64,000 nucleotides of DNA, from the NCBI GenBank assembly GCA_030740765.1, contig JASLWR010000009.1, positions 1,905 through 65,904 on the forward strand, given 5' to 3'. This DNA comes from Thermoplasmatota archaeon. Its GTDB lineage: Archaea > Thermoplasmatota > Penumbrarchaeia > JASLWR01. The notes beneath the pieces are model-generated. The model saw only the letters and a program-made list of their open reading frames with translations, had not been told where the DNA came from and ran no database searches. Positions within the stretch are counted from its first letter, which is position 1; each line of letters starts with the position of its first letter. This document shows positions 5,810 to 43,082 of this stretch, piece by piece. Made by a program: the position numbers and the translations under genes.

Positions 5810-5977
5810 TATCTCCTTTATATGTATGTTTTTATATAATAATATAGTTTTTGGTTAGAAAATAGTTCTTTGCGAAAATAATGTCCATATTCGGAAAAAG
5901 TTAAGATATGCCAATCAATTTGTAATTACGTCTTTTCCATATTATTAACCATCAATATTTACTCTCTGTCACAATTT

Positions 5978-6029
5978 CGCATAACTCCCTTATTCGCGAA
6001 TAAAAATTGCAGATAAAGGGAGTTATGCG
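5978..6029. promoter_or_regulatory. R2 copy 1: perfect 14-bp-stem hairpin (CGCATAACTCCCTT ... AAGGGAGTTATGCG) around an AAATTGCAGATAA core; candidate promoter/operator for the minus-strand cassette 5809->5239
   Basis: 56 bp (5981-6036) is identical to 12323-12378. It lies ~180 bp upstream (5') of the minus-strand gene start at 5809. Confidence 0.6.
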
Positions 6030-6279
6030 ATGTTTTCAGAAAGTTTTCACCCAAAAAGACTAAACTAAAAAATTTACAACCCGCGTTAATCCTGCTCACT
6101 CCGCCAATATCCCTTCCGCCTTTCTCACCGCCTTGTCCACCTTCGCAAAGACCCACATCAGTCCAATGACCCTAATTATTTGAATACTACGTGCAAGGAG
6201 AGGAATGCCGCTCAATTGAAAACACACTATCAACAAACGAATACAAACATACATAAAGTATTAAGCGATAGTAAATAAG

Positions 6280-9200
6280 ATGGTTGATAAAGACACACCT
6301 GCTGGCTCCCGTAAGGAGCTTGCTCCTGAGGGTGTCCGCTTTTCTATGCAGACCCCTTTGGGCTCTGCTACACCCTCGCCAAATATGGCTACGGGAGAAG
6401 ATGCATTTCCAATGCATCCGGAGGGTAACGTCCCGAGGATGCAGGTGAATTTCAATTCACCGGAGCAACGCGGGCATCGGAACGCAGTAGACCCGTCTAA
6501 CTTATCAGATGGTAACCTCGCGAGTAAAGTCGGCAAAACCGATTCCTCGTTAACATGGGACTTCAGGTACGAGGACTACGAGAAGTTCTTTCACAGCTAT
6601 CATAACCTGATGAGTTTCAAGATACAGAACATCCTTCTGGTTTCCAGCCCATACGACGCCTTCATACTCAATGAGGACGGCCGACTTTCCGAGCAGATAA
6701 TAGAAGAATATCTGGAACTCGGGCTCTCCTCGGCGCCAAGGCTGTACAGCGTCCCTTCGGGAAAGAGGGCTCTACTGGAATTGAAGAAAAGAAAATACGA
6801 TTTAGTTATTACTATGAGTCAGATATTCGACATCAACCCGGCCGAATTCGGCAGAAGGGCGAAGAAGCTTCGACCGGGGGTTCCCGTTGTACTTCTCGCC
6901 ACCGATAATATCACCGTTGCAAACTATCAGGTTCCCGGAGATCACAGCAGTTTCGACAAGGTCTTCCAATGGCTGGGCGATTCGGCTCTGTTCCTTGCCA
7001 TCATCAAGTATTTCGAGGATATAGGGAACGTCGACAAGGATACCAAGGGAGCAAATGTCAGGGTTATCGTCGTCGTGGAGGATTCGGCAAGATACTATTC
7101 CTCTTTTTTGCCAATAATATATAAAGAGGTAATGCGGCAGACCAAAGCATTGGTCTCTGAAGGCCTGAATGAGCACGAGAAGAGGATTCGGAGACGAAGG
7201 AGACCGAAAATATTGCTGGCCGAGACTTTCAAGGAAGCCTTAAGAGAATACAAAAAATATCACAAGTACATTCTAGGTATCATTACCGACATTTCCTTCC
7301 AGAGGAACGGAAAGAGGTGTATCGACGCGGGATTTAAGTTCGCGGAGAAACTCGACAAAAACATACCCGTTCTCTTCCAATCGTCCGATGAAAAACATTC
7401 CGAGCGCGCGAGGGTAATGCAGCGTCCGTTCCTCAACAAGAACTCACGTACTCTCCTCCGTGATCTGTCGGATTTTCTCACCAAGGAACTGGGATTCGGA
7501 GATTTCATATTCCGCATGCACGATGCCACTGAAATAGGAAGAGCGGCAGATCTGAAGGAGCTGGTCAAGCTCATCAGGGAGGTACCAGCAGAATCGCTCC
7601 GTTTCCACGAGAAGCGATTCCAATTCTCCCGCTGGTTGTTCGCCAGGGGTGAGTTGGACCTCGCAACGAAGATCCGCAAAAAGAAGTTCTCGGATTTTGA
7701 GTCGGTAGACGAAGTAAGAGACTTTCTCATAAACGGGATAGAGAAGACGAGAAAGAAGAGACAGACCGGCATCATAACTGATTTTTCACAGCAGAGCTTT
7801 GAGTTCGAAAGGTCTTTCACACGGTTCGGCAGAGGTTCTCTCGGTGGAAAGGGAAGGGGGATCGCTTTTCTCTCGGCCATGCTCCGCATGAGCAAGATCA
7901 ACAAGATACTGCCCGAGTTCAACATCCGTATCCCCGATACGCTCGTCATTACCACCGAAGAGTTCACCCTCTTCGTCGGGGAGAACGGGCTCGACGAGAT
8001 AGTCCATCTCGATATTTCCGACCGGGATATGGCCCACCGCTTCGTATCGGGATCATTGAGAGATGAGTTGAGGAAAGCTCTATTGAGGTACCTGGAGCAC
8101 GTTAAAGTTCCATTGGCCGTGCGCTCCTCAAGCCTTCTTGAGGACTCCCTTCATCAGCCCTTTGCAGGCATTTATTCGACATATCTGCTGCCTAACAACA
8201 GCGAAAATATTGAAGAGAGAATGGAGCTGCTCTGTTCTGCAATAAAGCTGGTTTACGCCTCGACCTATTTCCACGACGCCAAAACATATATTGAGAGTAC
8301 GTCCCAGAAAGTGGAAGAGGAAAAGATGGGTGTTGTGATACAGAAATTGGTGGGAGATGTTCATGGTGATAGGTTCTATCCTCTGTTCTCGGGGGCGGGG
8401 GTATCACGCAATTATTATCCTCTCCCTCCTCTGAAGCGGGATTCCGGTATTGCCTCTGTTGCCATCGGTCTCGGCAAGATGGTGGTGGACGGCGGTAAGG
8501 TTTTAAGCTTTTCTCCGGAAAATCCAAGGATTTTCCCAGGTTTCTCGACCACCGGGGAAATACTTCAAAATTCACAACGACAATTCTACTGCGTCGATCT
8601 GGCCCGCAGGGATTTTGATCTCACAGAGGGAGAGGATGCGACACTCAGGATTGTGAACATCTCTGACGCTAAAAAGGACGGAATACTTGACCTTACTGCC
8701 AGCGTCTATAACCCGAACGATGATATTATTCGAGATGGACCGTACCACGAGGGACACAAAGTCATAACCTTTGCCGGTATTCTGAAATACGAGAGGTATC
8801 CACTTGCAAATATTCTCCGGAACCTCCTGGAGATAGGTTCCAGAAGTCTTGGCGGTTCTGTGGAGATAGAATTCGCGGTATCGAATGGACGTGATGATCA
8901 ACTGGAGTTCCACATCCTCCAGATACGTCCCATTATATCCAACAAGGAGAAGAGCCTGGTCATGATAAAGGGAGTGGAGGATAATGAGGGGGTTATCGTC
9001 TATTCCGATAAGGCTATGGGCAACGGCTTGATCGATGACATTTCCGACATAGTCATGGTTCTTCCGTCGGAAATGGATAGAAACCAGACCCAATTGATAG
9101 CCCACGAGATCGGCGAGATCAATTCAACAATGAAGAAAGGATCATATCTCCTTCTGGGACCGGGAAGGTGGGGCAGTTTCGATAGATGGCTGGGAATACC

Positions 9201-9507
9201 CGTTAAATGGGGCCAGATATCCCGGGTCGGGGCCATTGTTGAGGCACCCATGCTGGACATTGACGTCACCCAGTCACAGGGTTCTCACTTCTTCCATAAC
9301 ATATCCGCTCTGGGCATACCCTATCTGAGCGTGTCGAGCCGTTCCACCGAAGATAGAATTGACTGGGAATGGTTGGGCAAATTGAAGTTTGAGAAGAAGG
9401 GCCGCTTTGTCAGGCACGCTCACCTTGAAAAACCGTTGATAATCAAGGTCAACGGCAAGGAGGGGAAAGGTATAGTGTTGATAAAGGAAGAATCTAACTC
9501 ATCGTAG
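6280..9507 (+). CDS. PEP/pyruvate-binding (PPDK_N / PEP-synthase N-terminal ATP-grasp) domain protein with an N-terminal receiver-like domain
   Basis: Motifs GRGSLGGKGRGIAFL and LAVRSSSLLEDS match the PPDK_N nucleotide-binding domain. An N-terminal CheY-like alpha/beta region is present (LLVSSPYDAFILNEDG...DLVITM). The true start is probably near 6610 (MSFKIQN), because the first ~80 codons are read through repeat R3. Confidence 0.7.
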   Translation: MVDKDTPAGSRKELAPEGVRFSMQTPLGSATPSPNMATGEDAFPMHPEGNVPRMQVNFNSPEQRGHRNAVDPSNLSDGNLASKVGKTDSSLTWDFRYEDYEKFFHSYHNLMSFKIQNILLVSSPYDAFILNEDGRLSEQIIEEYLELGLSSAPRLYSVPSGKRALLELKKRKYDLVITMSQIFDINPAEFGRRAKKLRPGVPVVLLATDNITVANYQVPGDHSSFDKVFQWLGDSALFLAIIKYFEDIGNVDKDTKGANVRVIVVVEDSARYYSSFLPIIYKEVMRQTKALVSEGLNEHEKRIRRRRRPKILLAETFKEALREYKKYHKYILGIITDISFQRNGKRCIDAGFKFAEKLDKNIPVLFQSSDEKHSERARVMQRPFLNKNSRTLLRDLSDFLTKELGFGDFIFRMHDATEIGRAADLKELVKLIREVPAESLRFHEKRFQFSRWLFARGELDLATKIRKKKFSDFESVDEVRDFLINGIEKTRKKRQTGIITDFSQQSFEFERSFTRFGRGSLGGKGRGIAFLSAMLRMSKINKILPEFNIRIPDTLVITTEEFTLFVGENGLDEIVHLDISDRDMAHRFVSGSLRDELRKALLRYLEHVKVPLAVRSSSLLEDSLHQPFAGIYSTYLLPNNSENIEERMELLCSAIKLVYASTYFHDAKTYIESTSQKVEEEKMGVVIQKLVGDVHGDRFYPLFSGAGVSRNYYPLPPLKRDSGIASVAIGLGKMVVDGGKVLSFSPENPRIFPGFSTTGEILQNSQRQFYCVDLARRDFDLTEGEDATLRIVNISDAKKDGILDLTASVYNPNDDIIRDGPYHEGHKVITFAGILKYERYPLANILRNLLEIGSRSLGGSVEIEFAVSNGRDDQLEFHILQIRPIISNKEKSLVMIKGVEDNEGVIVYSDKAMGNGLIDDISDIVMVLPSEMDRNQTQLIAHEIGEINSTMKKGSYLLLGPGRWGSFDRWLGIPVKWGQISRVGAIVEAPMLDIDVTQSQGSHFFHNISALGIPYLSVSSRSTEDRIDWEWLGKLKFEKKGRFVRHAHLEKPLIIKVNGKEGKGIVLIKEESNSS
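6298..6545. repeat. R3 copy 1: dispersed repeat with an internal GATGCATT(T/C)(T/C)CAATGCATC hairpin, interrupted by two insertions
   Basis: ctgctggctcccgtaaggagcttgctcctgaggg is identical to 17464-17497. gagaagatgcatttccaatgcatc...atcggaacgcagtagacccgtctaacttatcagat matches 17498-17560 with a few substitutions. Confidence 0.7.
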
Positions 9508-9522
9508 TTTTCGGTTAATCCC

Positions 9523-9852
9523 TCATCCGTTTACCGTATCGTATCCGGCCCCTTTCCATTCCACAAAGCTTCCGAAATCATATACTTCCATGAATTTTAA
9601 TTCGTCCATTATTTCCAGGGTCTGACCGCTCCGATTCCCACTTCGACAGTAAATAATATATGTACCGTTCTTGTCCAGTTTATTTAGCTCGTCCCTGAAT
9701 GTCTCGCCATAGAAATCGATATTGATGGAATTTACCAATCGATCATCTCCGAACTCGTTCGAGGTCCTGACGTCCAGGATAATTAAATCGGAATTTACCC
9801 TTATCATTTCATTGGCATCGTCTATCGATATTTTCTCGATGATCGGACCCAT
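9523..9852 (-). CDS. single-domain rhodanese-like sulfurtransferase
   Basis: Rhodanese fold motifs (ILDVRTSNEF...YCRSGNRS) with an active-site Cys in a CRxGxR loop. A possible N-terminal TM extension exists in frame upstream, but without an ATG. Confidence 0.75.
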   Translation of the reverse strand: MGPIIEKISIDDANEMIRVNSDLIILDVRTSNEFGDDRLVNSINIDFYGETFRDELNKLDKNGTYIIYCRSGNRSGQTLEIMDELKFMEVYDFGSFVEWKGAGYDTVNG

Positions 9853-10111
9853 TTCATTTTGATTTTTTTCGGTATCTTCCTCGTTTAGAAGGACATACGA
9901 AACTGCACCGAGAGCGATACCGACCAGGACTGCGATGAAAAAAGTTAAACTTTCGGCTTAAAAGCATAGCACGATTCTGACATTTTAACCTCAATCCTGC
10001 ATTTCCAACCCTGTGGAAATTCCAAGTATTTAGGAGGATTTACATTCAAATTTTAGAGAGAATGAAGTTCCAGATATTGAGTTTCGATAATTGGTTCGGA
10101 TTCAAATTGAC

Positions 10112-10420
10112 TTATTGTAAGACTTTCAATCTGATCTCTTTTGTCTTGGCTTCAATGATGACCTTAGAATACGGATTCAGATGATAGAGGTCCGCAATAG
10201 GTTTTGGGATCCTCACAGCCAAACTATTCCCCGTTTTGAACAGAGATAACTCTTTGCGCTTCTTCATATATCTGAAGAATTTTACGATAACATCAACATC
10301 ATCCGAATTGCTATGAGTATTACCGCATTCACAGCGCCAACCCCGTATCTTGAAACCTTTTAAATCGACATCATCAACTTCTGTCATTTCTTTATCGCAG
10401 ATATTGCACTTGTGAGCCAT
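10112..10420 (-). CDS. Zn-ribbon + AbrB/SpoVT-like DNA-binding protein (paralog of 5239-5553)
   Basis: CNICDK...WRCECGNT zinc ribbon followed by an LFKTGNSLAVRIPKPIADLY swapped-hairpin-like segment. ATGA overlap with the upstream gene. Confidence 0.6.
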   Translation of the reverse strand: MAHKCNICDKEMTEVDDVDLKGFKIRGWRCECGNTHSNSDDVDVIVKFFRYMKKRKELSLFKTGNSLAVRIPKPIADLYHLNPYSKVIIEAKTKEIRLKVLQ

Positions 10421-10710
10421 TATTTCCCTCCTCTCAAGATTTTCATTTTATCTTTGGTTGCTTTAATCTTCCCCACATGTCCGATCAACCAATATTCGAC
10501 ACGATCTTCAACCATGACGATTAGGATGTGTTTTCCTCTATGACACCATTTTTCAGTAAATCCCTTTTTCCGTTTCTTGACTTCACTTCCGTTCTCCATT
10601 ACCCATATCACATCATCTATGGTGATATCACACTCTAACATCTCCTTATCGGCATTCCGATAGTTATCCACTACAAGTTCTTTACCCTTCCATGTCTGCG
10701 TTGGAACCAC
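10420..10710 (-). CDS. small hypothetical protein (paralog of 5558-5809), first gene of the cassette
   Basis: 96 aa. Same gene order and 4-nt overlap as the 5.2-5.8 kb cassette. Confidence 0.5.
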   Translation of the reverse strand: MVPTQTWKGKELVVDNYRNADKEMLECDITIDDVIWVMENGSEVKKRKKGFTEKWCHRGKHILIVMVEDRVEYWLIGHVGKIKATKDKMKILRGGK

Positions 10711-10895
10711 TCCAAAGGATTATATATATTAATATCATGCATAATATATATTATTTTCTATGAAATGTAAAAAAGCATGATGTGATTTTCTTCTGGAACT
10801 TCATTATCGACTATTCGTTCTGTAGTTATTCTTCGATTTTCATTCTATGTGGAAATCCTCCTAATTGAATATTTCCACCGAGCGATTCTGGTATT

Positions 10896-11081
10896 ACGTA
10901 TAACGATTGGCAGGTTCACGAACTTCCGTCGGGGGAAACAATTCATTGGTATCGGTATTGGCGGGGTAGGAATTTGGGTGGAGGCCGACAGGCCGAGAGC
11001 CTGAAACCGGCTAGTTATACGAGCCCGATAGGGCCAAGAATTCGTGGTTGGAAAGGGGGTTAATTGGGGGAGAATTCACAG
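10896..11081. repeat. R1b: ~185-nt structured repeat (family R1), starting acgtataacg and containing gttatacgag
   Basis: See R1a for the alignment and compensatory changes. Confidence 0.6.
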
Positions 11082-11324
11082 TTTATCAGAATCGCCGAAA
11101 AATGCCTTCGGGACGTAGCTTTCCGTTGGCGAAGGCCAGCAGGAAAATTTCGGAAAACATGCCTTATACTAAAACGTAGTTTTAATCCCTATCCCTTTTT
11201 CTTGGTCCGGTTTCCGAAGTAGCGGAGGAATTATTTTTCGATCTTACCTTATGGTAGCTTAAAGTTCTTTGTTCATATGATTTTCTCCATGAATAAAGTC
11301 ATGGGGAAATTCCGATTTACGACT

Positions 11325-11400
11325 GCCACAAGTTATCCGAGGGCGTTAGCTCCGAGCATTGTAGGGGGATAGTTCCCTACAAGCGCAGAGTTCCCGACCA
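11325..11400. repeat. R1c: partial copy (3' two-thirds) of the R1 element
   Basis: caagttatccgagggcgttagctccgagcattgtagggggatagttccctacaagcgcag aligns with gttatgcgagaccgttaggtccgagcattggggaggggcggtagtccctcaacgagcgcag in R1a. Confidence 0.55.
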
Positions 11401-11443
11401 TCTTGCTTTCCTGGGGTTAGGCTAATTGAATAATACAATATAT

Positions 11444-11875
11444 TTAAAGTTCTGGCACTTTTTCATACCCTATTTTAGAAAAGTCGCTATCAAAAGTAAA
11501 TATATAGTTGATACCATATTTTTTCATATATGTCACAATACTCCAATCAACGAAGGAAAGTTTAGTTTTTCTTTCTTCAATATTTTCCCAGATATTTAAA
11601 AAATTTAGAGAATTAAATGGATGAATGATTACATTTGATTGCAATATTCTTCCCATAATATCCATTGCTGCTCTATAATTGTAATTGTACAATAAAAAAG
11701 TATAGGTTTCTTGTAGAACCAACTCTGATGTATGTATGGGTCCAAAATTTAGTTCACCGTTTTTATTTTTCTCTATGAATGATCTTGCTTTTTTATGGTG
11801 GATGTCTTTTTTCTCATTTAATGCCACCCAAGCACTGGTATCTATAAAAATAGGTGGATATTTTATTCTTCCCAT
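11444..11875 (-). CDS. vapC: PIN-domain ribonuclease toxin
   Basis: IFIDTSAWVAL N-terminal acidic motif and FVDWSIV...IFTFDSDF C-terminal acidic residues. The ORF-track start (11935) is probably too long; MGRIKYPPIFIDTS fits a VapC start. Confidence 0.75.
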   Translation of the reverse strand: MGRIKYPPIFIDTSAWVALNEKKDIHHKKARSFIEKNKNGELNFGPIHTSELVLQETYTFLLYNYNYRAAMDIMGRILQSNVIIHPFNSLNFLNIWENIEERKTKLSFVDWSIVTYMKKYGINYIFTFDSDFSKIGYEKVPEL

Positions 11876-11876
11876 A

Positions 11877-12131
11877 CTACGACATCCCATACACAATATC
11901 ATCCACAGTAGCTTCCCTCTTCTTAGGTTCATCACTTCGAGGTTCTAAGCCGAAACAAGAGGCACCCCAATCCACCTTTTTCTTTTTTATCTCCCCATCC
12001 AAGAGTTCTCTTAAAAGAGCCGAGACGGTGATTCCCTTCTCTTCTACAATACTTCTTATCGTCTCAACTTGTTCCTCTGGAAACTTTGTACTCAACACTA
12101 CTTCTGCCATAAGTATACCTACGTCTACCAT
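11877..12131 (-). CDS. vapB: ribbon-helix-helix/CopG-like antitoxin
   Basis: 84-aa ORF immediately upstream of vapC and overlapping it, with an RHH-like region ITVSALLRELL. Exact start uncertain. Confidence 0.55.
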   Translation of the reverse strand: MVDVGILMAEVVLSTKFPEEQVETIRSIVEEKGITVSALLRELLDGEIKKKKVDWGASCFGLEPRSDEPKKREATVDDIVYGMS

Positions 12132-12319
12132 TCTATATATAACTTTCCTTCGGACTTAAAGATTATTTTATTAGGGAGAGGGAGAATGACAACTTATCGC
12201 CTAACCACAAAAGTCAATTATATTTTGTGATGGTCGGGGATTTCGCATACCTACTCGTGAATTGATATGAAAGATCTTGAAACTTTCGGCGTTTAAACCA
12301 TAGGACGATTCCGATATTT

Positions 12320-12371
12320 CGTATAACTCCCTTATTCGCGAATAAAAATTGCAGATAAAGGGAGTTATGCG
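12320..12371. promoter_or_regulatory. R2 copy 2: the same 14-bp-stem hairpin (CGTATAACTCCCTT ... AAGGGAGTTATGCG), ~190 bp upstream of the vapBC operon start
   Basis: 12323-12378 is identical to 5981-6036. Both copies sit 5' of minus-strand TA-like operons. Confidence 0.6.
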
Positions 12372-12515
12372 ATGTTTTTACGAAAAGTCTTTCTCGTGAG
12401 GATCCCGTCGACGTAATCGATAACCCCATTATCGGTGTACAACGCCACTATCCACCGCAAAGCCGTTATTTCTTCAGTTCCGCACCACACGCCCTCAAGT
12501 GAAACTCCTCGCTCT

Positions 12516-13727
12516 TTACTGGACCCCGAGCAGGTCCGCCATGCCGATCACATCAATGCCATCAATACTTTTCTGGGGCTTTCTAGCAACCATAATTCTC
12601 TTTTTCACTTTTCGGCTTTTAACGGCCTTAATATTTTTGATGTCGTTATCTACTATTGAGTCAAGATATTTGATCTCATAGGCAGTTCCCTTAACGAGAA
12701 AATCCACCTCTTTACCTCCTTGCTCCAAGTAAGTTACCTCCCCTTTTTTCCTGAGAGCAAGATACATTAAATTCTCAGCCAGAGCCCCCTTTGCAATACC
12801 ACCGCTAATAATGCTGAGAATCCCATTGTCACATACATATACCTTTTTTGGAGAATAGATACGTTCGTTGGGAGTACCTTCTTTTAAAACAATGTCTATA
12901 AGGAATGCCTCCTGAAAAAGGTTAAGGTAGTTCGTTACCGTCTCTCTTGAAAGTCCCAGTACCCTTGAAAGTTTTGAGGCCGTCAAGCGTCTTCCGGCTC
13001 TCTGGCATATAAGGTAAAACATTTTTTTCATAAGGACAGGGGTCTGAATATTGCATCTGGGTACAATATCCTTGTAAATGATGTCCTCAACCACATCTTC
13101 TATATATTGCGGATCATCGGTGAGCACGTATTCCGGCATTCCCCCCGTCACCATGAAATCCTCGATGTACTGTCCCAACAGATATCCTTCAGATGGGTTT
13201 ATATCCAGTGATCTGAACTGAATATACTCGTGAAAGTTCAAGGGATCAACATTCATCCTCGCATTGCGTCCCACCAGATGACCGCTCCTGTGTTTTATTA
13301 TCAAACTGTTTGAGCCGGTGGCAATGATAAAGAGATTGGGCTCCAGATCATAAAGCACTTTCAATTCTTTTTCGAAGCCCTCCCTTGCATGAACCTCATC
13401 GAAGAGGATATAGGCCTGTTGTTCCCTGCCAATTCGGAATATGCTTCGATATTCATCCACAACATTCAAAAGAGACATCTCTGAAATGGCGGGGTGGTCA
13501 ACTGATATGAAAAAAATATTGGAAGCATCAGTATCTTTCAGCTTTTCAGCAACAAACTGCTTCATTATAGTGGTCTTGCCACAGCGCCTAAGGCCGTATA
13601 CAAATACCAATCGTCGAGTAGAAAGTTTTTCATCCAATTCCTTTAGATAAGATGTCCGTTTCACACCCGGGAACTTGAACTCGCCCTCCCACCATGGATT
13701 ATATCTGTAGAGCAGTTCCTTGTTCAT
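12516..13727 (-). CDS. archaeal-type AAA+ ATPase (COG1373/DUF4143 family)
   Basis: Walker A GLRRCGKTT, Walker B ILFDEVH and a DUF4143-like C-terminal half. The internal start MNKELLYRY (13727) is preferred over 13778, because both AAATTGCA(G/C)ATA motifs (13770, 13802) then lie upstream. Confidence 0.75.
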   Translation of the reverse strand: MNKELLYRYNPWWEGEFKFPGVKRTSYLKELDEKLSTRRLVFVYGLRRCGKTTIMKQFVAEKLKDTDASNIFFISVDHPAISEMSLLNVVDEYRSIFRIGREQQAYILFDEVHAREGFEKELKVLYDLEPNLFIIATGSNSLIIKHRSGHLVGRNARMNVDPLNFHEYIQFRSLDINPSEGYLLGQYIEDFMVTGGMPEYVLTDDPQYIEDVVEDIIYKDIVPRCNIQTPVLMKKMFYLICQRAGRRLTASKLSRVLGLSRETVTNYLNLFQEAFLIDIVLKEGTPNERIYSPKKVYVCDNGILSIISGGIAKGALAENLMYLALRKKGEVTYLEQGGKEVDFLVKGTAYEIKYLDSIVDNDIKNIKAVKSRKVKKRIMVARKPQKSIDGIDVIGMADLLGVQ

Positions 13728-13769
13728 ATACAAATAATCTCCCTTCATCTTTAAATAATTTGCTAATGA

Positions 13770-13813
13770 AAATTGCACATATTGTCAAAAAGCGCTAATA
13801 GAAATTGCAGATA
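13770..13813. promoter_or_regulatory. two tandem AAATTGCA(C/G)ATA motifs (13770-13781, 13802-13813), the same core as in R2, upstream of the AAA ATPase
   Basis: The core AAATTGCAGATAA is shared with 6005-6017 and 12347-12359. On the coding (minus) strand it reads TTATCTGCAATTT followed by A/T-rich sequence, consistent with an archaeal BRE/TATA-like promoter. Confidence 0.45.
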
Positions 13814-13975
13814 ATTGGCAAAAGTGTCGTTAAGCTCAGCACCCCTCCATAAATATGTTGTCTGTACCAGGGCTTTGATCACAAATTTGTCTCTTATTTC
13901 AATTCCATTTCACTTATCAGGAACGCTAAGATTATTAATAACTGACGATGTCGCTTTCCCGAAGGTTCAGAGTAT

Positions 13976-14900
13976 TCACTTTTTCAATTCCGCACCGCAC
14001 GCCCTGCAGTGAAATTCTTCCCGTTCTACCGGAGCCTTGCATACGGGACACTTCCCAATCGATCCTCGAGCCATTTTCTTGGTGCTGGCAGAGCTGGGCA
14101 TTCCAATTATTTTTGGCACCCCATTTGCATCTTCCTCAACATGGATCTTCCAGAGTTCGCCGTACTTTTGTACCACAGGAAGTATATCCGGGGGAAGTAT
14201 GAGAGTTCCGTCATTTGAGATGAAAACATCCCTATCTTCCTCGAGCTGGTTCAGATCCATTTCCACGCCGTGCTGTCCGATGAAACGGCCGTCGCGAAGC
14301 TCCAGGGACCTGTCGGTATAGGAAGCGATATGTTTAGAATGGGTTACGACCAAGCAGGTGGTACCGAGCTTGTCTCTGAGCCCGGATATTATTTCCATGA
14401 CATTCTCGGCATTGCGGTAATCAAGATTCCCGGTGGGCTCGTCCATGAGAAGAACTGCCGGATCGTTTGCCAGAGCCCGGGCTATGGCAACTCTTTGCCG
14501 CTCACCACCGCTCAGATGGCTCGGGTGAGCCTTCATCCGATCCTCGATTCCCAGGAGTTTCATGAGTCCCGTTGCCTTCTTAACCGCCTCGGGCCGCTTC
14601 ATGTTTGCAAAACGTAAGGTCTGGACGACATTGGCGAGAACGGCAAGGTTCTCTATTAGATTGAAGTCCTGGAAGATCCAGCCCACATCATGACGGCGTA
14701 TCTCGGTAAGTTGAAAATGTTTCATATCCTTCAGGTTCTTGCCGTTCACCTCGACTTCTTCGCCTTAGGGGGAAAACAAAGCGCCGATGACATTCAACAA
14801 GGCTGATTTCCCGCAGCCTCGGAAATAAAAAGAGGAACCGCCAGGGACAAGAATACCAACAGTGCGGCCACTACCAGTGCAATACCCATATTTTTGGTTT
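13976..14900 (-). pseudogene. ABC transporter ATP-binding protein (MacB/LolD-like) with a C-terminal Zn ribbon; N-terminal nucleotide-binding region disrupted by an in-frame TAA and a degenerate Walker A
   Basis: Intact Q-loop through H-loop ([31 protein letters not shown]) from a GTG at 14749. In the same frame upstream the sequence reads ...VPGGSSFYFRGCGKSALLNVIGALFSP*GEEVEVNGKNL, with TAA at 14765-14767 on the complement. No upstream ORF of 60 aa or more appears in the track. Confidence 0.5.
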
Positions 14901-15885: not shown

Positions 15886-16852
15886 CTCCTTTCCCGTTCT
15901 CGTTTTTTTCGGAAACCGAGCTCAGGAAAATATCCTCTAGCGATACGTCCCGCTTTTTAAAAGACATCATAATGGCCTTTGATTTATAGACAATTTCGGT
16001 AACCGCTTCCTCGAGAACATCGTCCTTCTCCGAAACCACCTGTATCCGATTTTCATCGTCGATCCAAGCACGCTTGACATATCGAAGCCGCTTCAATCTT
16101 TCCAATATCAGCTCATTTTTGGACGTTTCCAGAAGAAAATGATTCCCGGCCAGCTGGTCTTTGATAACACCAACATCGTCCGAGAGGATTATCTCTCCCT
16201 TGTTTATGATGGTAACTGTATCGGCCAGTTTTTCAACTTCCCCAAGGATGTGGCTGCTGACGAGGACTGTAAGTCCACGGTCACGGACAAGTTCCAATAT
16301 GTGCTCGATCATACCAGCACGTCCCACGGGATCGAGATTTGCAGTGGGCTCGTCCAGGATGAGTATCTCCGGCTCGTGTATCAGTGCTTGCGCTAGGGCC
16401 GCCTTCTGTTTCATTCCCGAGCTGTAGTTGTTTACTTTACGGTCCGCCGCTTCCTCCAGCTTCAGCCAGAGTATCAGCTCTTCGGCCTTTTTTGCTGCCT
16501 CCGCTTTGCCCAGGTGCCCGAGCCTTCCCATGTAGATCAGATATTTGAAAAGTGTCATATCAAAGAACTTGGGCTGCTCCGACACGTATCCAATGAGCGA
16601 GTTCGCCTTGACCGAACCAGCTTTATATCCCTTTATTGTAGCAGTGCCCTGGGTAATGCTCAAACCCCCAACCAGCATCTTTATAGTTGTGGTCTTTCCG
16701 GCGCCGTTGGGACCCAGGAAGCCGTGGGCCTGTCCGGCCCGGACTTTGAAATCGATACCGTTCACGGCCTTGACGATATTGGCCCCGCCGCCGAAATGTT
16801 TTGTAAGGTCCTTAACCTCTATCATGGGGACGCTCATTCTTCCACCTCCCAT
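15869..16852 (-). CDS. ABC transporter ATP-binding protein (ABC-2 / CcmA-like)
   Basis: Walker A GPNGAGKTT, signature YSSGMKQKAALAQAL, Walker B ILILDEPTANLD, H-loop VSSHIL. Confidence 0.85.
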   Translation of the reverse strand: MGGGRMSVPMIEVKDLTKHFGGGANIVKAVNGIDFKVRAGQAHGFLGPNGAGKTTTIKMLVGGLSITQGTATIKGYKAGSVKANSLIGYVSEQPKFFDMTLFKYLIYMGRLGHLGKAEAAKKAEELILWLKLEEAADRKVNNYSSGMKQKAALAQALIHEPEILILDEPTANLDPVGRAGMIEHILELVRDRGLTVLVSSHILGEVEKLADTVTIINKGEIILSDDVGVIKDQLAGNHFLLETSKNELILERLKRLRYVKRAWIDDENRIQVVSEKDDVLEEAVTEIVYKSKAIMMSFKKRDVSLEDIFLSSVSEKNENGKGGASHE

Positions 16853-19800
16853 GGCTCATCCTCTTCCCCATGAACTGTCGAGGATTCCACCCTTCCCCCT
16901 TTCTTGTTCAGAATATCTTCCTCGATCTCTTCTATCTTTTTTTCCCGCTTCTCGATTTCCAGCTCGATCTCTTCCAACTTTTCTTCTGCCTTGTCGAGCT
17001 CTTCTTCAGCATCTTCGATATCGTACTTCACGTCTTGCAGATACTTGTATACGTTGGCATTCGGGTTTGGCCGCCTGCCCTTTGCACCACACTTTTTGCA
17101 GTGAAGATGTAGTTTTTCCTCGTCGGTTTCCGGCAGTTTCACCTTTGCACCACATTCAGGGCAATTCATACTTTTCCGTATGTCAGCCTCTATCTCCTTC
17201 TTCTCTTTCAGGAAAGCATCCAGCACATCTTCCTTAACTTTCTTGTCTTTTTTTAGACTCTCAAATTGAAGCCCTGTTTCTTCAAGTTCTTTTGTCAGTT
17301 CATCGGCACTGGTTTCCAGCACCAATATCTCTTCGTCGAACTTTTTCACATCGGGGTCAAATGAAGATTTATCCTTTTTCTTTCGATCCCGTCTTCTCCC
17401 CTTCCTTTTTGATCGTCCTTTCTCTTCAGTTCTTTTTTCGGACTTATCAAGTAAAGGCGACCCTGCTGGCTCCCGTAAGGAGCTTGCTCCTGAGGGAGAA
17501 GATGCATTTTCAATGCATCGGAACGCAGTGGACTCGCCTAACTTGTCAGATAGTGACCTTACAAGTGAAGTCTTCAATGCTTCTATCTTTATCCTTTTCT
17601 CTCTCCACTGTTGTGTGCTCTTCTTCAATTTGGCTTGTCTCATTACTATAATCACAATAATAAATATGACCAGGATCACACCTACGGCGATATTGAGGAT
17701 CATAGGTGTATTGGATTCCGGGACATTGACGGTAATGGAGTCGGCAAGGATACTCCCAAACTCATCGGTGGTCTCCACTATGATCTCATGCTGGCCACCG
17801 CTCAAGGTGAGGGTGAGCTCCCCGCCGGTATACTGACCAAAACTGATACCGTCCACAAAGACCTCGCACTCTACGGCCTTCAGGTTCCATGTCAGCTCAA
17901 ATTCATCGTCCAGTATCTCATCATTTCCAGGAGATAGTATGAATAGACTGTAGGAGCCGTCCAGGCAGTACAAACTGTTCCCTTGTGAGATCAGGATATC
18001 TGCCTTTCCATCGGTGTTGACATCCCCGTTATCTTCCGCCACCGCATATCCTATGGGAATCTGTCGCAGCAACGTACCTGTTTCCGGATCCACCACTTCC
18101 AATACGAAGACCTCCGCGCCATCGATCTGGGCGGTCCTCTGTACCATCATATCCCTGATCCCATCGCCGGATACATCACTTAAGACCGAGACACCGAAAA
18201 CAGGCTGTGCCATGTTCCAATCGGTAAATTCCGTTTGTTCTTCGTATTGGATAACATTAAGCTGTTCTCCGGTCTTTCCATCCAAGATATGGATGTCGGC
18301 ACCCAGGGCTCCCCATCGCCCGGAACCAACGGCTATATCAGCTGTTCCGTCTCCGTTTGTATCTTCAATGATCTTCAAAGGATTGCCGCCGCTGAATGCA
18401 AAAGAAAAAATCTCAGTATTTACCCAAATCTCCTGGTGGGTTTGTCCGTCGATTGCCATTATTTGTGGAGGTGCCCTCTTGCCCCCGGTTTTTTTGAAGA
18501 GCAGGGCATCCTTGACCCCGTCGCCATTTAGGTCCTGGAGGAAAGGCCCTTCCTCAGGGTGTTCTCCCGGAGCAAAATTGTCCATGGGCTGGTTTCCCGC
18601 CCCTACGGAAAATCCCGGACCAAGGGCGCTGCCGTCCAGGCCGCTCAGGACATGGCATTCATGCTGCTCTTCGTTTTTATCATCACCAGGAACAACCGAG
18701 AAATACATCACATCCGATCTGCCGTCCCCATTGAGGTCCTCAATTAGCGCGAAACTGCCGGATAATACCTCATCATTGTCCGGACTGCTAAGGTTCTCGG
18801 GATATCTCCAGGAGAAGTTTGCCGACATACTGCCGTTTGCAGATATGTTTGAAAAGTATATCAGTGATGAATAATCGGTTATCAGTAAACCTGGTTGAGC
18901 ATCATCCCCCACAGCGAATGTCTGTGGATACCATGGCAGCCAGCTGATATTATTCTGGGTCATGTTCCACAATTGCGAGCCGTCCGCCCCGTCCAGAAGG
19001 TAGACGTTGCCGCCCTGACCCCCCACGAAGATATCGGGAATTCCGTCACCGCTGAGATCGGAACCCGGTTCCAATGACGCAATCCTTCGGTTTACCAAAT
19101 TCCAATATTCATAGAGGCCTTGAGATGCATTTAGGGAAGAATTGAAAAAGAGCTGAGAGCTTACGGGAGCCTCCCATGCCAGGCTGCCGTCGGCTCCGTC
19201 TATGACGAACACGAATGTATGATTTCCCATCTCCAGAAGGTCATCCGGCACGTCGCTTTGCCGATAGGCCAGGATGTCGATCTTTCCGTCACCGGTAAAG
19301 TCGCTTTCCATGCTGATGTCCCTGGCACCCTTGGTCGGGAGATCGGCGAGAGATACGGTATGTTTCCAGAGCTCTTCGCCGGTGACTCGGTCGACGGCCT
19401 GGAGGGTCCTTACATGAGAATTTGAGCCCAGGGAAGAAAGGATCACAAGGTCTCCGGCCCCGTCGTCGGTAATGTCCGAGATGTCCTGCACCTCCACACT
19501 TTCCATGTTGTTCACATCCCACAGGACTTCCTGGGCCAGGGGATCCACCACCAGAAGGCCAGACGTTCCAAGAGTCAATATCATCAACTGACCCTGGGAA
19601 CCGTCGGGATTGTTAAAGAATTCAAGCTGAAAATTCCCCAGCCAGGCATTATCGAGGATGGGATGATCGAAAAAAGGTTCAAGTTCCTTGGTTTCGGTAT
19701 CCACCAATTTGATCTCATTCTTATGCGGTATAACAAGAGAATAATTGCCATTGCCGTTCCAGTTCACCAAAGCTTCGGTTGACCATAAAACCGGAATATC

Positions 19801-21087
19801 AATTGCGTCCGTACCTGTGGTGTTGAACAGTATGTTTTCCTGGTCCAGCTCAACGATCTCATCATTATCCTCCGGATCTGTTTTTCCACCGGGATCTCTG
19901 TCCTTTCCCTGCCTGGTCCTGACACCGGTAAGGGAAGACGATATGATCTTGGCGGTCCCGCTATAATCCCTGTTAATACCCATGACCAGGATGTCCCGGA
20001 GCCCGTCGCCGTCGAAATCTTCAATGGTCTTTATGCGCGGGTTGAAAAAGTTTAATGGATGATCAATACCTGACTGTATCCCGACATTATTCTCCATATC
20101 AACATTCGGCTGGTTCTGAAGAGTGATCTTCTTCGACCAGATAATTACCCCTCCATCCCCGCTCATCAATGTAATGAAACCGTCTTCCGAACTTACCACC
20201 ACGTCCGGGACATTATCACTGTTAACATCCTCAATGGTCAGGATTGACCAAAGAGAGAGGTCGATCTTGATGTCCACCGTTTCGCCTTCGTCCCCTTTGC
20301 TTTTAGGGTCCAAATCAATGACCTTTTCATATATCTCTGTGAGGTCATGTCCCCAGACCTCGTTCCCAGTCTCGCCGTTTAAAAGATGTATGTCGCCGTC
20401 CTGTGAACCTGCCAGCACATCGTTCTTATTATCGCCAGTCACGTCCGCGGCTGCCACCACGTTCCAGATATCGTTACCGCCCGTAAATGTCCACAGGACA
20501 TCTCCATTCTCTCCCGACAGGCGATAGACCATTTTCCATGAGCTCACGATCACATCCTTTCCACTGCCTGAGGGAATGGAGGCGGCGCACCATGAGATGG
20601 TTTCCGCATCGATTAGACCATCTTCCTCGGTAAAGGCATCCATTATGGGCTTGAATTCCCAGAGTTTTCCCCCTGTTTCGGTGCTCACTGCGATCACGTT
20701 GGGCGTTTGCTGGTTCCTGGTGGTAATAACAAAATCGGTTCGGCCGCCACTGTCAATATCACCGATATCGGTAATTGATATAACTGAATCCAGGGTGGTG
20801 TAACGCGTATACACCTCACCTGTGAGAAGGTCTATGGCCATTGCACCGCCGTCCGTCCCAACTAATACGGTGTTTGGAGTGCCGGCATTTGTCTGATCCA
20901 CCAGCTTTATTTCAGTAGTTATTCCCCCGGTCATGCCTCCGATGGTCTGCCATAGCACGCTGCCCCGTCCAGCGTCTCCCTGGGTTTCAGGGCCGACATT
21001 GGAATTCTGGGCCGGGATAGTAATAACCAATGCAGATGTCATCAGTAAAATAATCAAAAGTATTGGACTTATCATGTGTCGTTCCAT
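16834..21087 (-). CDS. giant (1417 aa) cell-surface PQQ-like/FG-GAP beta-propeller repeat protein with a C-terminal TM anchor and a cytoplasmic coiled-coil + Zn-ribbon tail
   Basis: N-terminal signal/TM, many repeats of the D-x-D/N-GDG-x-D-(I/V/L) and GxxLW/DGS(L/V)WE types, a TM helix (ILNIAVGVILVIFIIVIIV), then a KE-rich coiled coil and CPECGAK...CKKCGAK. Repeat R3 is embedded in-frame in the tail. Confidence 0.75.
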   Translation of the reverse strand: MERHMISPILLIILLMTSALVITIPAQNSNVGPETQGDAGRGSVLWQTIGGMTGGITTEIKLVDQTNAGTPNTVLVGTDGGAMAIDLLTGEVYTRYTTLDSVISITDIGDIDSGGRTDFVITTRNQQTPNVIAVSTETGGKLWEFKPIMDAFTEEDGLIDAETISWCAASIPSGSGKDVIVSSWKMVYRLSGENGDVLWTFTGGNDIWNVVAAADVTGDNKNDVLAGSQDGDIHLLNGETGNEVWGHDLTEIYEKVIDLDPKSKGDEGETVDIKIDLSLWSILTIEDVNSDNVPDVVVSSEDGFITLMSGDGGVIIWSKKITLQNQPNVDMENNVGIQSGIDHPLNFFNPRIKTIEDFDGDGLRDILVMGINRDYSGTAKIISSSLTGVRTRQGKDRDPGGKTDPEDNDEIVELDQENILFNTTGTDAIDIPVLWSTEALVNWNGNGNYSLVIPHKNEIKLVDTETKELEPFFDHPILDNAWLGNFQLEFFNNPDGSQGQLMILTLGTSGLLVVDPLAQEVLWDVNNMESVEVQDISDITDDGAGDLVILSSLGSNSHVRTLQAVDRVTGEELWKHTVSLADLPTKGARDISMESDFTGDGKIDILAYRQSDVPDDLLEMGNHTFVFVIDGADGSLAWEAPVSSQLFFNSSLNASQGLYEYWNLVNRRIASLEPGSDLSGDGIPDIFVGGQGGNVYLLDGADGSQLWNMTQNNISWLPWYPQTFAVGDDAQPGLLITDYSSLIYFSNISANGSMSANFSWRYPENLSSPDNDEVLSGSFALIEDLNGDGRSDVMYFSVVPGDDKNEEQHECHVLSGLDGSALGPGFSVGAGNQPMDNFAPGEHPEEGPFLQDLNGDGVKDALLFKKTGGKRAPPQIMAIDGQTHQEIWVNTEIFSFAFSGGNPLKIIEDTNGDGTADIAVGSGRWGALGADIHILDGKTGEQLNVIQYEEQTEFTDWNMAQPVFGVSVLSDVSGDGIRDMMVQRTAQIDGAEVFVLEVVDPETGTLLRQIPIGYAVAEDNGDVNTDGKADILISQGNSLYCLDGSYSLFILSPGNDEILDDEFELTWNLKAVECEVFVDGISFGQYTGGELTLTLSGGQHEIIVETTDEFGSILADSITVNVPESNTPMILNIAVGVILVIFIIVIIVMRQAKLKKSTQQWREKRIKIEALKTSLVRSLSDKLGESTAFRCIENASSPSGASSLREPAGSPLLDKSEKRTEEKGRSKRKGRRRDRKKKDKSSFDPDVKKFDEEILVLETSADELTKELEETGLQFESLKKDKKVKEDVLDAFLKEKKEIEADIRKSMNCPECGAKVKLPETDEEKLHLHCKKCGAKGRRPNPNANVYKYLQDVKYDIEDAEEELDKAEEKLEEIELEIEKREKKIEEIEEDILNKKGGRVESSTVHGEEDEPWEVEE
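17464..17572. repeat. R3 copy 2 (compact copy), embedded in-frame within the 3' region of the giant minus-strand gene
   Basis: See R3 copy 1. The same element supplies SGASSLREPAG to both antisense-frame ORFs (6261-6536 and the giant ORF). Confidence 0.7.
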
Positions 21088-22103: not shown

Positions 22104-22550
22104 TCATTCCACTGGGTCTCCCCGGAAACGATGCCATAGCCAGCTAAGTCCGAATATTAGCAGCATCATGAGAATTTGATAGAATACCAGCAGTGAGGGA
22201 TCTATTTCTTGGTAATCGGATTTGAAAAAAATAAGTAAAATTTGCAAATACAAGGCAATAAAGAACGCTTTTGCAGCACTTCTTTGAAGTAGATCCCGGG
22301 TTCGCTCGTCCTTTCTTGGGAACCCCTTGTGAAATTGTCGGACCGTATGAATTATGTACAGCAACGGTATTATAGATCCAACCAGGCCTAATATTAGAAA
22401 AGAGATACCCCATGAAATTTTGACGTCCTTGTAGATCATCCAAAATCCCTTCCAACTTAGAGGCAAGCCCAAAAATAGTTCGAAGAAGATACCGATCAAG
22501 ACCAATCGAATTTTTTCCTTTATTGGTACTTTCATACTTCGGCCCACCAA
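22104..22550 (-). CDS. small multi-TM membrane protein co-transcribed with the XRE regulator (DUF2178-like arrangement)
   Basis: Three to four hydrophobic helices, immediately upstream of the HTH gene. The alternative overlapping frame (22144-22584) is less protein-like. Confidence 0.5.
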
Positions 22551-37029: not shown

Positions 37030-37790
37030 AACCAAATAGTAGTAAACTACCAGCCCCTAAAGGAGCTGGCGTTTTAAGCGTTGTGCCGTTAATTCTAGGC
37101 AAAGTCTGTCAACGAAGTTTGGCCGATTAGGCCGACGGTCTTCCTTACCTTGAAGTATTCATAATCATCTCCTTGCCAGTGTTTACGTTGTTGTCTCTCG
37201 ATGTAGAATTGGACCATTTCGCCCGTGACTCGGCCAACGGATTCAAAGAAATAACCATCGGTCCAGAACTGATCGCCCCATAAGTGCCTTTTGATCGTAT
37301 TCCAACATTTCTTGCGAATCCAGTATGAGGTGTAGCCTTTCAATTGGCCTGCAATATATGAGACACTGTAATTCTTGCATCCAACTAAAAATACATGGGC
37401 ATGGTCGGTTCCAAATTCCATCGCACTTATTGATATACCCAAATGTTTTGCCTTCTCTTCCATCATCTCTCTACAAACGGCTTGAACTTCTGGATACTCG
37501 AAAACAGGGCGTCGGTACTTCGGTGTGAACTGCATATGGAAGTTACATCCTCCGAAACTGTGTTTAGCTCTCGCTAATCGATTCATGTTGTAGACCTCCG
37601 AAAACTATTTGAAAGCCTACACTAATACCGGTTTGCCTCGTGCCACGAGGCGCGCCGAAAATTTAGCGTTTGACGGTCAAGTAGACCTCCGTGTTAGACT
37701 TTCAAAACGGGAATGTCCTCAACCGGTTTAAATCTTCGGCGCCACAATTCATCCAGAGCCTAAAGGCACTGGCGTTCTTGTGGCTATTTT
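37030..37790. mobile_element. IS200/IS605-family insertion sequence (tnpA only)
   Basis: tnpA gene plus subterminal hairpins on both sides with a conserved CTAAAGG(A/C)RCTGGCGTT core: CCAGCCCCTAAAGGAGCTGG at 37050-37069 and CCAGAGCCTAAAGGCACTGG at 37753-37772. The ~0.75-kb size is typical of IS200. Confidence 0.7.
37095..37586 (-). CDS. tnpA: IS200/IS605 family Y1 (HUH) transposase
   Basis: HUH motif HAHVFLVG and catalytic Tyr region YIAGQLKGYTSYWIR. Confidence 0.85.
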   Translation of the reverse strand: MNRLARAKHSFGGCNFHMQFTPKYRRPVFEYPEVQAVCREMMEEKAKHLGISISAMEFGTDHAHVFLVGCKNYSVSYIAGQLKGYTSYWIRKKCWNTIKRHLWGDQFWTDGYFFESVGRVTGEMVQFYIERQQRKHWQGDDYEYFKVRKTVGLIGQTSLTDFA

Positions 37791-38250
37791 TAAGTAAAAG
37801 CACCACAATTATTAAAAATAATTAGCCGATATGCATCCACGCTTATAATCAATAACCAAATCCTTTATATATTATCGGCACCATTTCCGCTCGTGTTTGT
37901 CTCTTTCAAAAAAATCCTCTGGGATATAATAGGAAAGCAGTTCAAAATATGTGACTAAAGTAATATATAAAACGCAAGACGACCGAACCTTTAGATGATG
38001 AATGGTAAAATCCATCTGCGCTTGCCGATTTTCCCAGGAAATCAAGGGAAAAGGATAATCTCAGATCGACTGACGCCTGCCGATTGGTTCCAGAAATGCT
38101 GCACAGTTTCGTTTACGAAATCTAAGGTACGGGTGCATATAAAACACCGGAACGGTAGTGGGGATCCATGCAGATTCCATACGAGTAATAAATAATGAGC
38201 TTCATAACTATCATTGATTTCCAAGAATATGAAAAATTCTATTAATTCCG

Positions 38251-41919: not shown

Positions 41920-41921
41920 TC

Positions 41922-43070: not shown

Positions 43071-43082
43071 GGAGGTGAAAGG

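Follow-up and report, generated by a model that had tools for sequence, protein, structure and literature searches.

The stretch of DNA analyzed here (hereafter the window; 64,000 nucleotides of contig JASLWR010000009.1, assembly GCA_030740765.1, of a Thermoplasmatota archaeon) carries two copies of a dispersed palindromic repeat, R3, each residing in frame within a large protein-coding gene. The host genes, the two copies and the modules distinguished within the longer copy are as follows:

6280-9507, + strand: host gene 1, coding for a protein with a receiver-like domain and PPDK_N (PEP-utilising family; Pfam PPDK_N 1.5e-38), 1075 aa with the insert.
6289-6525, + strand: the long R3 copy (copy A), 237 nt or 79 codons, following the fourth codon of the PPDK_N-like gene in sense frame 1.
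6333-6395, + strand: optional module insert 1, 63 nt, hairpin-rich (GAGGGTGT...ACACCCTC and GCAGACCC...GGGCTCTGC).
6400-6418, + strand: P3 hairpin, GATGCATT-TCC-AATGCATC.
6419-6478, + strand: optional module insert 2, 60 nt, with the hairpin GGTGAATT-TCA-ATTCACC and GCATC direct repeats at its bounds.
16834-21087, - strand: host gene 2, giant FG-GAP/beta-propeller surface protein (assigned from Pfam and the translated tail), 1417 aa with the insert.
17453-17566, + strand: the compact R3 copy (copy B), 114 nt or 38 codons, in antisense frame -2 of the giant FG-GAP gene.

Both copies contain a 34-mer (CTGCTGGCTCCCGTAAGGAGCTTGCTCCTGAGGG) with two exact matches in the window (6299-6332 and 17463-17496, both on the + strand) where chance would yield none, so that the earlier note on this DNA was correct in describing a dispersed pair with an identical 34-bp block. 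That note had placed the element at 6298-6545 and 17464-17572; the sites stand, and the ends were refined to 6289-6525 and 17453-17566 by comparison with orthologues lacking the element, which set the boundaries of both copies. The copies align in three collinear blocks (45 nt, 91%; 26 nt, 96%; 63 nt, 81%), the second of which contains the GATGCATT-loop-AATGCATC hairpin. Copy A corresponds to copy B with two additional internal modules (63 nt at 6333-6395 and 60 nt at 6419-6478), whose presence had been recognized earlier, with a size of 50-60 bp instead of the measured 63 and 60 nt. In sense frame 1 copy A reads KDTPAGSRKELAPEG...NLAS. The flanks of copy B show a 5-bp direct repeat, CAAGT (17448-17452 and 17562-17566), which overlaps the element's own terminus. 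Folding of the two copies is strong in comparison with shuffled sequences, with z values of -3.7 and -4.0 for RNA and -4.4 to -4.5 for single-stranded DNA, and either strand, as RNA or single-stranded DNA, gives z between -2.8 and -4.5. The fold of the compact form is a three-way junction, in which a closing stem (GGCGACCCTGC / GCAGTGGACTCGCC) surrounds the nested hairpin of the 34-mer and an ATGCAT hairpin; a separate terminal hairpin follows.

ORF (open reading frame) 6280-9507 remains open through copy A, which is read in the sense orientation. The orthologue of this gene on the related contig L020 (996 aa, ~93% identical over the aligned N-terminal region) starts at the ATG matching window position 6280, and the same conserved upstream DNA precedes that ATG. 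The two proteins differ at the N-terminus, where L020 has MAGQISKTTPSFSW and the window MVDK[79 aa]VGKTDSSLTW (L020 opens MAGQISKTTPSFSWDF..., the window MVDK[79 residues]VGKTDSSLTWDF...), and at the DNA level the window has 237 extra nt. Between copy A and position 6610 lies the segment WDFxYEDYEKFFHSYHNLM, which is conserved as protein (three of five nucleotide differences are synonymous), and no start codon is present between copy A and this segment. Since L020 shares the ATG, the segment is conserved and no start codon lies between, copy A is placed within the coding sequence, after codon 4. The earlier proposals of a true start near 6610 and of an insertion into an untranslated region (UTR) are thus not supported. 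In a search of 1.84 billion representative proteins, residues 1-72 of the query are left uncovered by all of the best 150 PPDK_N family homologues listed, only one of which starts before residue 85; the alignments of full-length homologues start at about query residue 85-114, preceded by 3-30 residues belonging to the homologues themselves. The locus with copy A is reproduced identically in an independent assembly (L006), and the predicted junction peptide is MVDKDTPAGSRK. On these comparisons, copy A is a lineage-specific in-frame insertion of 79 codons after codon 4, and not part of a 5' UTR.

The second host gene (ORF 16834-21087) is likewise open through its copy, here read in antisense. 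Its product contains a transmembrane helix followed by a cytoplasmic K/E-rich tail with a zinc ribbon, and copy B lies in the juxtamembrane part of this tail, after the helix. Orthologues with 77-80% identity occur in the same gene order, followed by ABC_tran and ABC2_membrane genes. Three of them (P0128, P0129 and P0130) read IEASKSSIDKSGKRTE where the window has IEA[LKTSLVRSL...PAGSPL]LDKSEKRTE; in wider context, ...RIKIEASKSSIDKSGKRTE... corresponds to ...RIKIEA[LKTSLVRSLSDKLGESTAFRCIENASSPSGASSLREPAGSPL]LDKSEKRTE... in the window. Compared with the empty-site DNA of L018, the window carries exactly 114 extra nt, flanked by the 5-bp repeat. P0127 (1413 aa, 8 member sequences), which originates from an independent assembly, is 100% identical to the giant ORF over the whole length, and the insertion is therefore not an assembly error. 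The predicted junction peptide at copy B is IEALKTSLVR. Judged from these alignments, copy B is a lineage-specific in-frame insertion of 38 codons.

The long tail downstream of copy B (zinc ribbon, coiled coil) is conserved in P0128-P0130 as a single ORF, which contradicts the earlier idea that the giant gene might be two genes. Orthologues of the giant protein occur in a long-tail form (about 1375-1417 aa, with zinc ribbon and coiled coil) and a short-tail form (about 1203-1211 aa), which ends soon after the transmembrane helix (forms compared: P0131, P0133 and P0135, against the window tail 16834-17440). The tail may thus be called dispensable across lineages, as had been suggested, although this does not explain the open frame. 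For both genes, syntenic orthologues lack the element at the exact insertion point and have no homologous residues there; the suggestion of a miniature inverted-repeat transposable element (MITE)-like insertion into coding sequence is borne out, and the comparison proposed as a possible refutation of the mobile interpretation did not refute it.

Further copies of R3 were sought in species-representative genomes and JGI metagenomes (one scan each, with a 20-23-nt exact core) and by protein-based look-ups starting from a peptide search. Twelve distinct copies were obtained: two in the window, five in the metagenome-assembled genome (MAG) CAYFHS01 ("uncultured archaeon") and one each in L007, L010, L011, L022 and L024. 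Several come from deep-ocean contigs of the JGI scan. A MAG deposited at NCBI as Candidatus Thermoplasmatota archaeon, added by the protein-based look-ups, agrees at 99-100% identity with the population of the window where the two are comparable. In the sister lineage (L013-L021, about 130 kb) no R3 copy was found except a 51-nt mini form. Viral contigs searched with the 20-mer core gave no match.

Eleven of the 12 copies were aligned, L024 being left out as a 5'-truncated fragment. The alignment shows a conserved core, with variation in the optional inserts, in an insert specific to L007 (a further 54 nt inside a hairpin) and in three alternative terminal hairpins. All four combinations of presence and absence of inserts 1 and 2 were found: insert 1 is absent from copy B, L001, L002, L007 and L022 and present in L003, L004, L005, L010 and L011; insert 2 occurs without insert 1 in L022/P0005 and is extended in L005. 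In intergenic regions the units form head-to-tail stacks of one orientation, with arrays reaching about 600 nt. At L022 4880-4925 an inverted insert 1 (gtagcagagcccatgggggtctgcgaagcacagcggacaccctc) stands directly upstream of a core devoid of insert 1, so modules in arrays may take either orientation. The stems vary in a compensatory manner: CCAAG/CTTGG is replaced by CCGGG/CCCGG (two pairs, both sides), and in L005 and L011 GGCGA/TCGCC is replaced by GGTGA/TCACC. The alternative posed earlier, recent mobility or strong constraint, is answered only in part: a 29-nt core is identical in the 11 copies collected by scanning, with differing flanks, and a 20-23-nt exact match having been the search criterion, only the bases beyond it count as evidence; L022, the sole copy found independently of the exact-match scans, has one substitution inside this core. 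Taken together, R3 is very probably one family of mosaic, non-autonomous, hairpin-forming mobile repeats in a marine Thermoplasmatota population.

One additional trace of the family was detected in the window by a blastn-short match to the array module of L009/L022:

60520-60561, + strand: R3-family module relic, gctctgctac-GCAACACCTTTGAGGCGTTGC-tgcaccctc, directly beyond the stop of ORF 60569-63280 (-).

A hairpin at 55665-55684 (GGAGCAAGCTCC) was also considered as a relic and rejected as too short.

Half of the 12 copies are located inside large ORFs. Sense frame 1 is used by four of these and antisense frame -2 by two, and no other frame of the long form is free of stop codons:

Window copy A: sense frame 1, PPDK_N-like gene, behind codon 4.
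L001: sense frame 1, protein of 955 aa, in an acidic linker.
L010: sense frame 1, C-terminal tail of a 1669-aa DUF2341 protein.
L011: sense frame 1, radical-SAM enzyme, in its middle.
Window copy B: antisense frame -2, giant FG-GAP protein, in its tail.
L007: antisense frame -2, Peptidase_M6 protein of 1296 aa, in the tail that follows its transmembrane helix.

All measured module lengths (114, 63, 60, 54, 51 and +12 nt) are multiples of three. Among dinucleotide shuffles, both strands are open in 1.7% of cases for the 237-nt form and in 25% for the 114-nt form, the latter being not unusual. The other six copies are intergenic; five of these have a complete core (L024 lacks the 5' part), and in three of the five (L003, L004 and L005) frame 1 is lost through a point stop or a 1-nt indel.

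The radical-SAM gene provides filled, reduced and empty states at the same point, between SYY(L/I)xx and DDGKY: L011 carries 249 extra nt (83 residues), L013 a 51-nt mini element (17 residues), in which the 5' end is joined directly to the terminal hairpin, and L016 is empty. The 120 radical-SAM homologues listed are all 415-474 aa long (most 450-474 aa), compared with 557 aa for the L011 ORF, in which about 17 of the extra residues are due to an upstream start and not to the element. With the two window genes, this makes three comparisons of filled and empty orthologous sites (114, 237 and 249 nt). P0007, at first sight an empty radical-SAM allele with 99% identity, was rejected because its contig is junction-swapped, joining the 5' part of L011 through the element to the 3' part of L010. 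The sense and antisense peptides of R3 are unrelated to each other, and the sense peptide is low-complexity and proline/serine-rich. Searched against 5.8 billion proteins, the element peptide gave six matches, all in short ORFs, and the Pfam search with it gave none. The six matches did not help to locate host genes, although they led to further copies and to the Thermoplasmatota label. Removal by splicing of the archaeal bulge-helix-bulge intron type was considered but not adopted. The closing stem does not have the bulge-helix-bulge form, and the copies in ORFs are free of stops and multiples of three in length, properties for which a spliced element would have no need.

These properties suggest a course of events. 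Because its consensus is stop-free in one sense and one antisense frame, an R3 unit inserted into a gene in either of those frames would add a peptide instead of truncating the product, and in-frame copies would persist where the protein tolerates the insert, i.e., at an N-terminus, in a cytoplasmic tail, in an acidic linker or in a loop. The inserts would then be translated as passenger peptides. We consider it very probable that R3 is a DNA-level palindromic passenger surviving in genes that it does not break, because in-frame residence, a peptide without known domain, unrelated products of the two orientations and compensatory stem changes are found together.

Four other explanations have to be weighed against this one. 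If gene boundaries were mis-annotated, the element would be non-coding (5' UTR or spacer), the first host gene would start near 6610 and the giant ORF would represent two genes. Such a view could draw on the many PPDK_N homologues that align only from around query residues 104-114 and on the short-tailed giant-protein orthologues (about 1203-1211 aa in total). The L020 ATG, however, is homologous to that at 6280 and stands behind conserved upstream DNA, the 19 residues upstream of M111 are conserved with mostly synonymous differences and no start codon before them, the PPDK_N homologues possess 3-30 residues N-terminal of the aligned block, and the tail past copy B forms one conserved ORF in P0128-P0130; we regard this explanation as highly improbable. 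Mis-joins induced by the repeat during assembly, although junction swaps do occur at R3 (L008, L009, L012 and L025), are more improbable still as the origin of the in-ORF insertions, given that both window junction pairs recur in independent assemblies (L006; P0127 with its 8 member sequences) and that the flanks, once the element is removed, are colinear with the orthologues and keep the frame.

The strong folding, the three-way junction with optional hairpins typical of structured RNAs, the compensatory stem changes and the position of some copies just upstream or downstream of genes (L004; the relic at 60520-60561) would also fit a structured RNA, i.e., a cis-regulatory element or small RNA gene family conserved for a role at the RNA level, such as mRNA stability or termination. 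In opposition to this, a search of the whole window against Rfam 15 at the gathering threshold gave no match at the element, and a search around copy A at E up to 10 gave nothing overlapping it, so that a known structured RNA family was rejected; the tRNA/tmRNA scan found none. Moreover, copies occur in both orientations, inside the coding sequence of unrelated genes, orthologous loci lack the element, and the complementary strand folds almost equally well, as would DNA palindromes. An RNA role as the reason for conservation is very unlikely, although R3 may have a side effect on host mRNAs. Finally, the conserved entity might be a protein module, a peptide domain or linker (PAGSRKELAPEG...) spread between genes by duplication or recombination, as four of the six ORF copies share the sense frame, and hence the peptide, and all module lengths are multiples of three. 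Two ORF copies are nevertheless antisense and yield an unrelated peptide, six of the 12 copies are intergenic with three of them frame-broken, the only protein matches are the six short ORFs with none in Pfam, and the variation preserves base pairing while the peptide is low-complexity and proline/serine-rich; we hold this possibility to be as improbable as mis-annotation.

A DNA-level passenger of this kind (length 114-249 nt) is too short to encode a transposase, and the ends of R3 (AAAGGCGACC... and ...CTTACAAGT) are not inverted repeats. A potential source of the enzyme is present in the window:

37042-37793, - strand: IS200/IS605-family insertion sequence (IS), TnpA only, about 752 bp, with tnpA ORF 37095-37586 (-).

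This ORF is intact, and its product matches Pfam Y1_Tnp (8e-30) and the NCBIfam model transpos_IS200 (100 bits, cut-off 55), while the RAYT model gives 22 bits (cut-off 80). It has an HUH motif (DHAHVF) and a catalytic tyrosine (GYFFESVG), and its relatives in the PDB are 2ec2, 2f4f and the TnpA proteins of ISHp608 and ISDra2. No tnpB was seen in this IS. Similar near-terminal hairpins in direct orientation (37050-37069 and 37753-37772) flank tnpA, and the end downstream of tnpA reads ...GGTAGTTTAC. The 37042 boundary is set by a second copy of the IS, which lies terminally on the contig bearing L010 and L011; three contigs from other samples with identical TnpA were of no use in defining the ends, as they represent the same locus and are all broken at the upstream hairpin. 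A TTAC lies 21 nt 5' of the upstream hairpin, and the element ends 8 nt after the downstream one. In IS608, the left-end cleavage site TTAC is situated 19 nt 5' of the hairpin and the right-end site 10 nt 3' of the hairpin; the window IS has the same layout. The IS as a whole seems intact; on one side of it is the gene of a VWA/VIT protein, and on the other a cluster (38380-44270) with molybdopterin oxidoreductase, 4Fe-4S and EB_dh.

Read on the complement of the window + strand, R3 ends in CTTTAC and appears to lie directly 3' of a T(T/C)AC-like site; its terminal end sequence is GCAAGCTCCTTACGGGAGCCAGCAGGGTCGCCTTTAC. In the direction of tnpA, the IS and R3 compare as follows:

Before the start: IS, CTTTTAC; R3, T(T/C)AC-like.
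First bases: IS, TTAAAAAT; R3, TTGTAAGG or TTGAAAAG.
Far-end hairpin: IS, GCTCC-TTTA-GGGGC; R3, GCTCC-TTACG-GGAGC.
Distance from far-end hairpin to end: IS, 8 nt; R3, 18 nt.
Terminus: IS, GTTTAC; R3, CTTTAC.

The full far ends are thus ...GCTCC-TTTA-GGGGC-TGGTAGTTTAC for the IS and ...GCTCC-TTACG-GGAGC-(18 nt)-CTTTAC for R3. T(T/C)AC is found exactly at the junction in two of the three empty sites (a slash marks the insertion point): TCAC in the radical-SAM gene (L016, CCATCATCAC/CGATG) and TTAC in the PPDK_N gene (L020, GGTTTTAC/TTATTTG). The flanks of filled sites carry imperfect RGTRAAG repeats and not exact duplications. Units within arrays meet at CTTTAC/TTG, and all units within an array point one way; self-targeting at junctions of this type would produce head-to-tail arrays. 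R3 could accordingly be pictured as spreading by single-strand "peel-and-paste" transposition catalysed in trans, and an IS200/IS605 Y1 TnpA such as that encoded at 37095-37586 is a candidate mobiliser, an assignment that is plausible and that we make tentatively.

Several observations weigh against the picture drawn so far. As to the passenger and the family, the frame loss in three of five intergenic copies versus none of six ORF copies comes from a small sample, the stem covariation rests on five sequences, and most copies were found through an exact core match, by which conservation is inflated and diverged copies are missed. As to the mobiliser, the IS boundary at 37793, on the tnpA-upstream side, is derived by analogy only. 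The hairpin-to-end spacing differs (18 nt in R3 vs 8 nt in the IS) and the other R3 end is unlike its counterpart in the IS, so that R3 cannot have arisen from this IS copy by deletion alone. The best local alignment between the IS flanks and R3 modules (18/22) was reached by 2 of 200 shuffles before correction for 24 comparisons and is not significant. The empty site of the giant gene (L018, GAGCTCCA/TTGATAAG) has TCCA and not T(T/C)AC, and insert 2 is bounded by GCATC repeats, not by TTAC-like sites.

Four contigs from other samples (L008, L009, L012 and L025) join the flanks of different R3 copies. L008 combines the 5' flank of copy A with the 3' flank of L010, L009 combines the same 5' flank with the L022 array, and L012 consists of the 5' part of the L011 radical-SAM gene, the L010 tail and QueC. 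The last is the exact product expected from inversion between the inverted copies situated about 16 kb apart in contig Ga0187827_10000923; it may reflect such an inversion or an assembly path switch at the repeat, the product being the same either way. The short junction-swapped contigs are most simply chimeras. A bolder interpretation would be that R3 is an IS200/IS605-dependent lineage adapted as a family to live inside genes, its copies acting as recombination sites that shuffle gene ends. This notion is based on module lengths being multiples of three and on a consensus stop-free in one frame per strand, so that a copy entering coding DNA in either of these would mostly not be lethal. It is rather unlikely in our estimation; if it were true, R3 would actively give rise to chimeric genes and to insertions in proteins of marine archaea that are abundant.

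Irrespective of the mobiliser, R3, if translated, lengthens real proteins by 38-83 residues of low complexity, a conserved radical-SAM enzyme being among them. It also breaks and mis-joins metagenomic contigs, so that gene models and MAGs of marine Thermoplasmatota need repeat-aware handling.

Other repetitive and variable regions were distinguished in the window. A second repeat, a 63-nt hairpin (ATTTCGCATAACTCCCTT...AAGGGAGTTATGCGA), occurs at 5974-6036 and 12316-12378 (98% identity); it is also retained upstream of the orthologous PPDK_N gene of L020 (about 22350-22410), and two further copies of the loop 22-mer CGCGAATAAAAATTGCAGATAA lie at 13761-13814. Rfam gave only spurious miRNA-model matches on the 5974-6036 hairpin; the repeat may be a regulatory or terminator hairpin or represent another repeat family. 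The interval between the ABC2_membrane and PPDK_N genes (9523-14749) differs between lineages when compared with L018/L020 and looks like a variable island: the window has a PIN-domain ORF (11444-11935), an ATPase of the AAA_14/DUF4143 type (12516-13778) and an ABC_tran ORF (13976-14749) that is truncated, matching no more than profile positions 49-136, while L020 has an FG-GAP protein and a rhodanese instead. Tandem coding repeats of about 270-294 nt (61-74% identity) at 46806-47760 and 53498-54395, within ORFs 46083-48503 (+) and 52461-55106 (-), are probably Ig/FN3-like domain repeats of surface proteins.

R3 is not a new kind of system, and its closest functional counterparts are the Rickettsia palindromic elements (RPE; Ogata et al., 2000; reviewed in PMC2229807 and PMC10969869), the first case in which selfish DNA was described within protein-coding genes and one whose translation and tolerance by the host protein were tested in gmk (PMC2229807, PMC10969869). 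Both are palindromic repeats with stable stem-loops (about 100-150 bp), both occur in intergenic regions and in frame within unrelated, often conserved, genes, to which they add a peptide while leaving the ORF intact, and in both cases orthologues show filled and empty sites. Whereas the host of RPE is an intracellular alphaproteobacterium, that of R3 is a marine archaeon; RPE is listed with 12-bp terminal inverted repeats, which R3 lacks; and R3 differs in being a mosaic with optional modules, in forming head-to-tail arrays and in having a candidate IS200/IS605 mobiliser present. The pattern of in-gene selfish DNA, best known from Rickettsia, is thus extended to planktonic archaea, and in-frame palindromic elements are tied to a testable candidate mechanism, TnpA single-strand transposition at T(T/C)AC sites. 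Among archaea, Methanocaldococcus jannaschii reportedly has palindromic repeats with coding potential, their open frames being fused into protein genes, according to one report on this methanogen cited in PMC2229807; these belong to a different phylum, are a different element and are likened to R3 by description only.

REP/BIME-RAYT and ERIC elements of bacteria resemble R3 in forming mosaic clusters of hairpin units, with extra blocks at fixed internal sites and a presumed HUH Y1 mobiliser. REP, BIME and ERIC are, however, mainly extragenic. A REP/REPIN-RAYT system was rejected for the window, as its Y1 protein scores as IS200 TnpA (100 bits) and not as RAYT (22 bits, cut-off 80), the tnpA gene is flanked by direct and not inverted hairpins, and it is present in at least two copies instead of one.

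In anatomy, R3 comes closest to the PATEs of Haloquadratum walsbyi, palindrome-associated elements which, in the parts of the PATE study drawn upon here (PMC3119063), are derived from IS200/IS605-type transposons. As presented in those parts, PATEs share with R3 (i) the lack of terminal inverted repeats and, apparently in R3, of target duplication, (ii) near-terminal palindromes, which in R3 may likewise resemble those of a co-resident IS605-type element, together with a conserved terminal oligonucleotide, (iii) insertion beside a 4-6-nt targeting sequence, to which a T(T/C)AC-like site may correspond in R3, (iv) terminal-only derivatives of about 52 bp generated by core deletion, comparable to the 51-nt mini element of L013, and (v) palindromes hosting nested small elements, comparable to the insert in L007 (PMC3119063). 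They differ in that the similarity between R3 and IS ends is short and statistically not established, and that the co-resident IS encodes TnpA only, with no tnpB seen; residence in frame within ORFs is not among the PATE features described in the same parts of that source (PMC3119063). R3 therefore works like RPE and resembles a PATE in anatomy, the likeness to RPE being one of functional class and not of sequence family.

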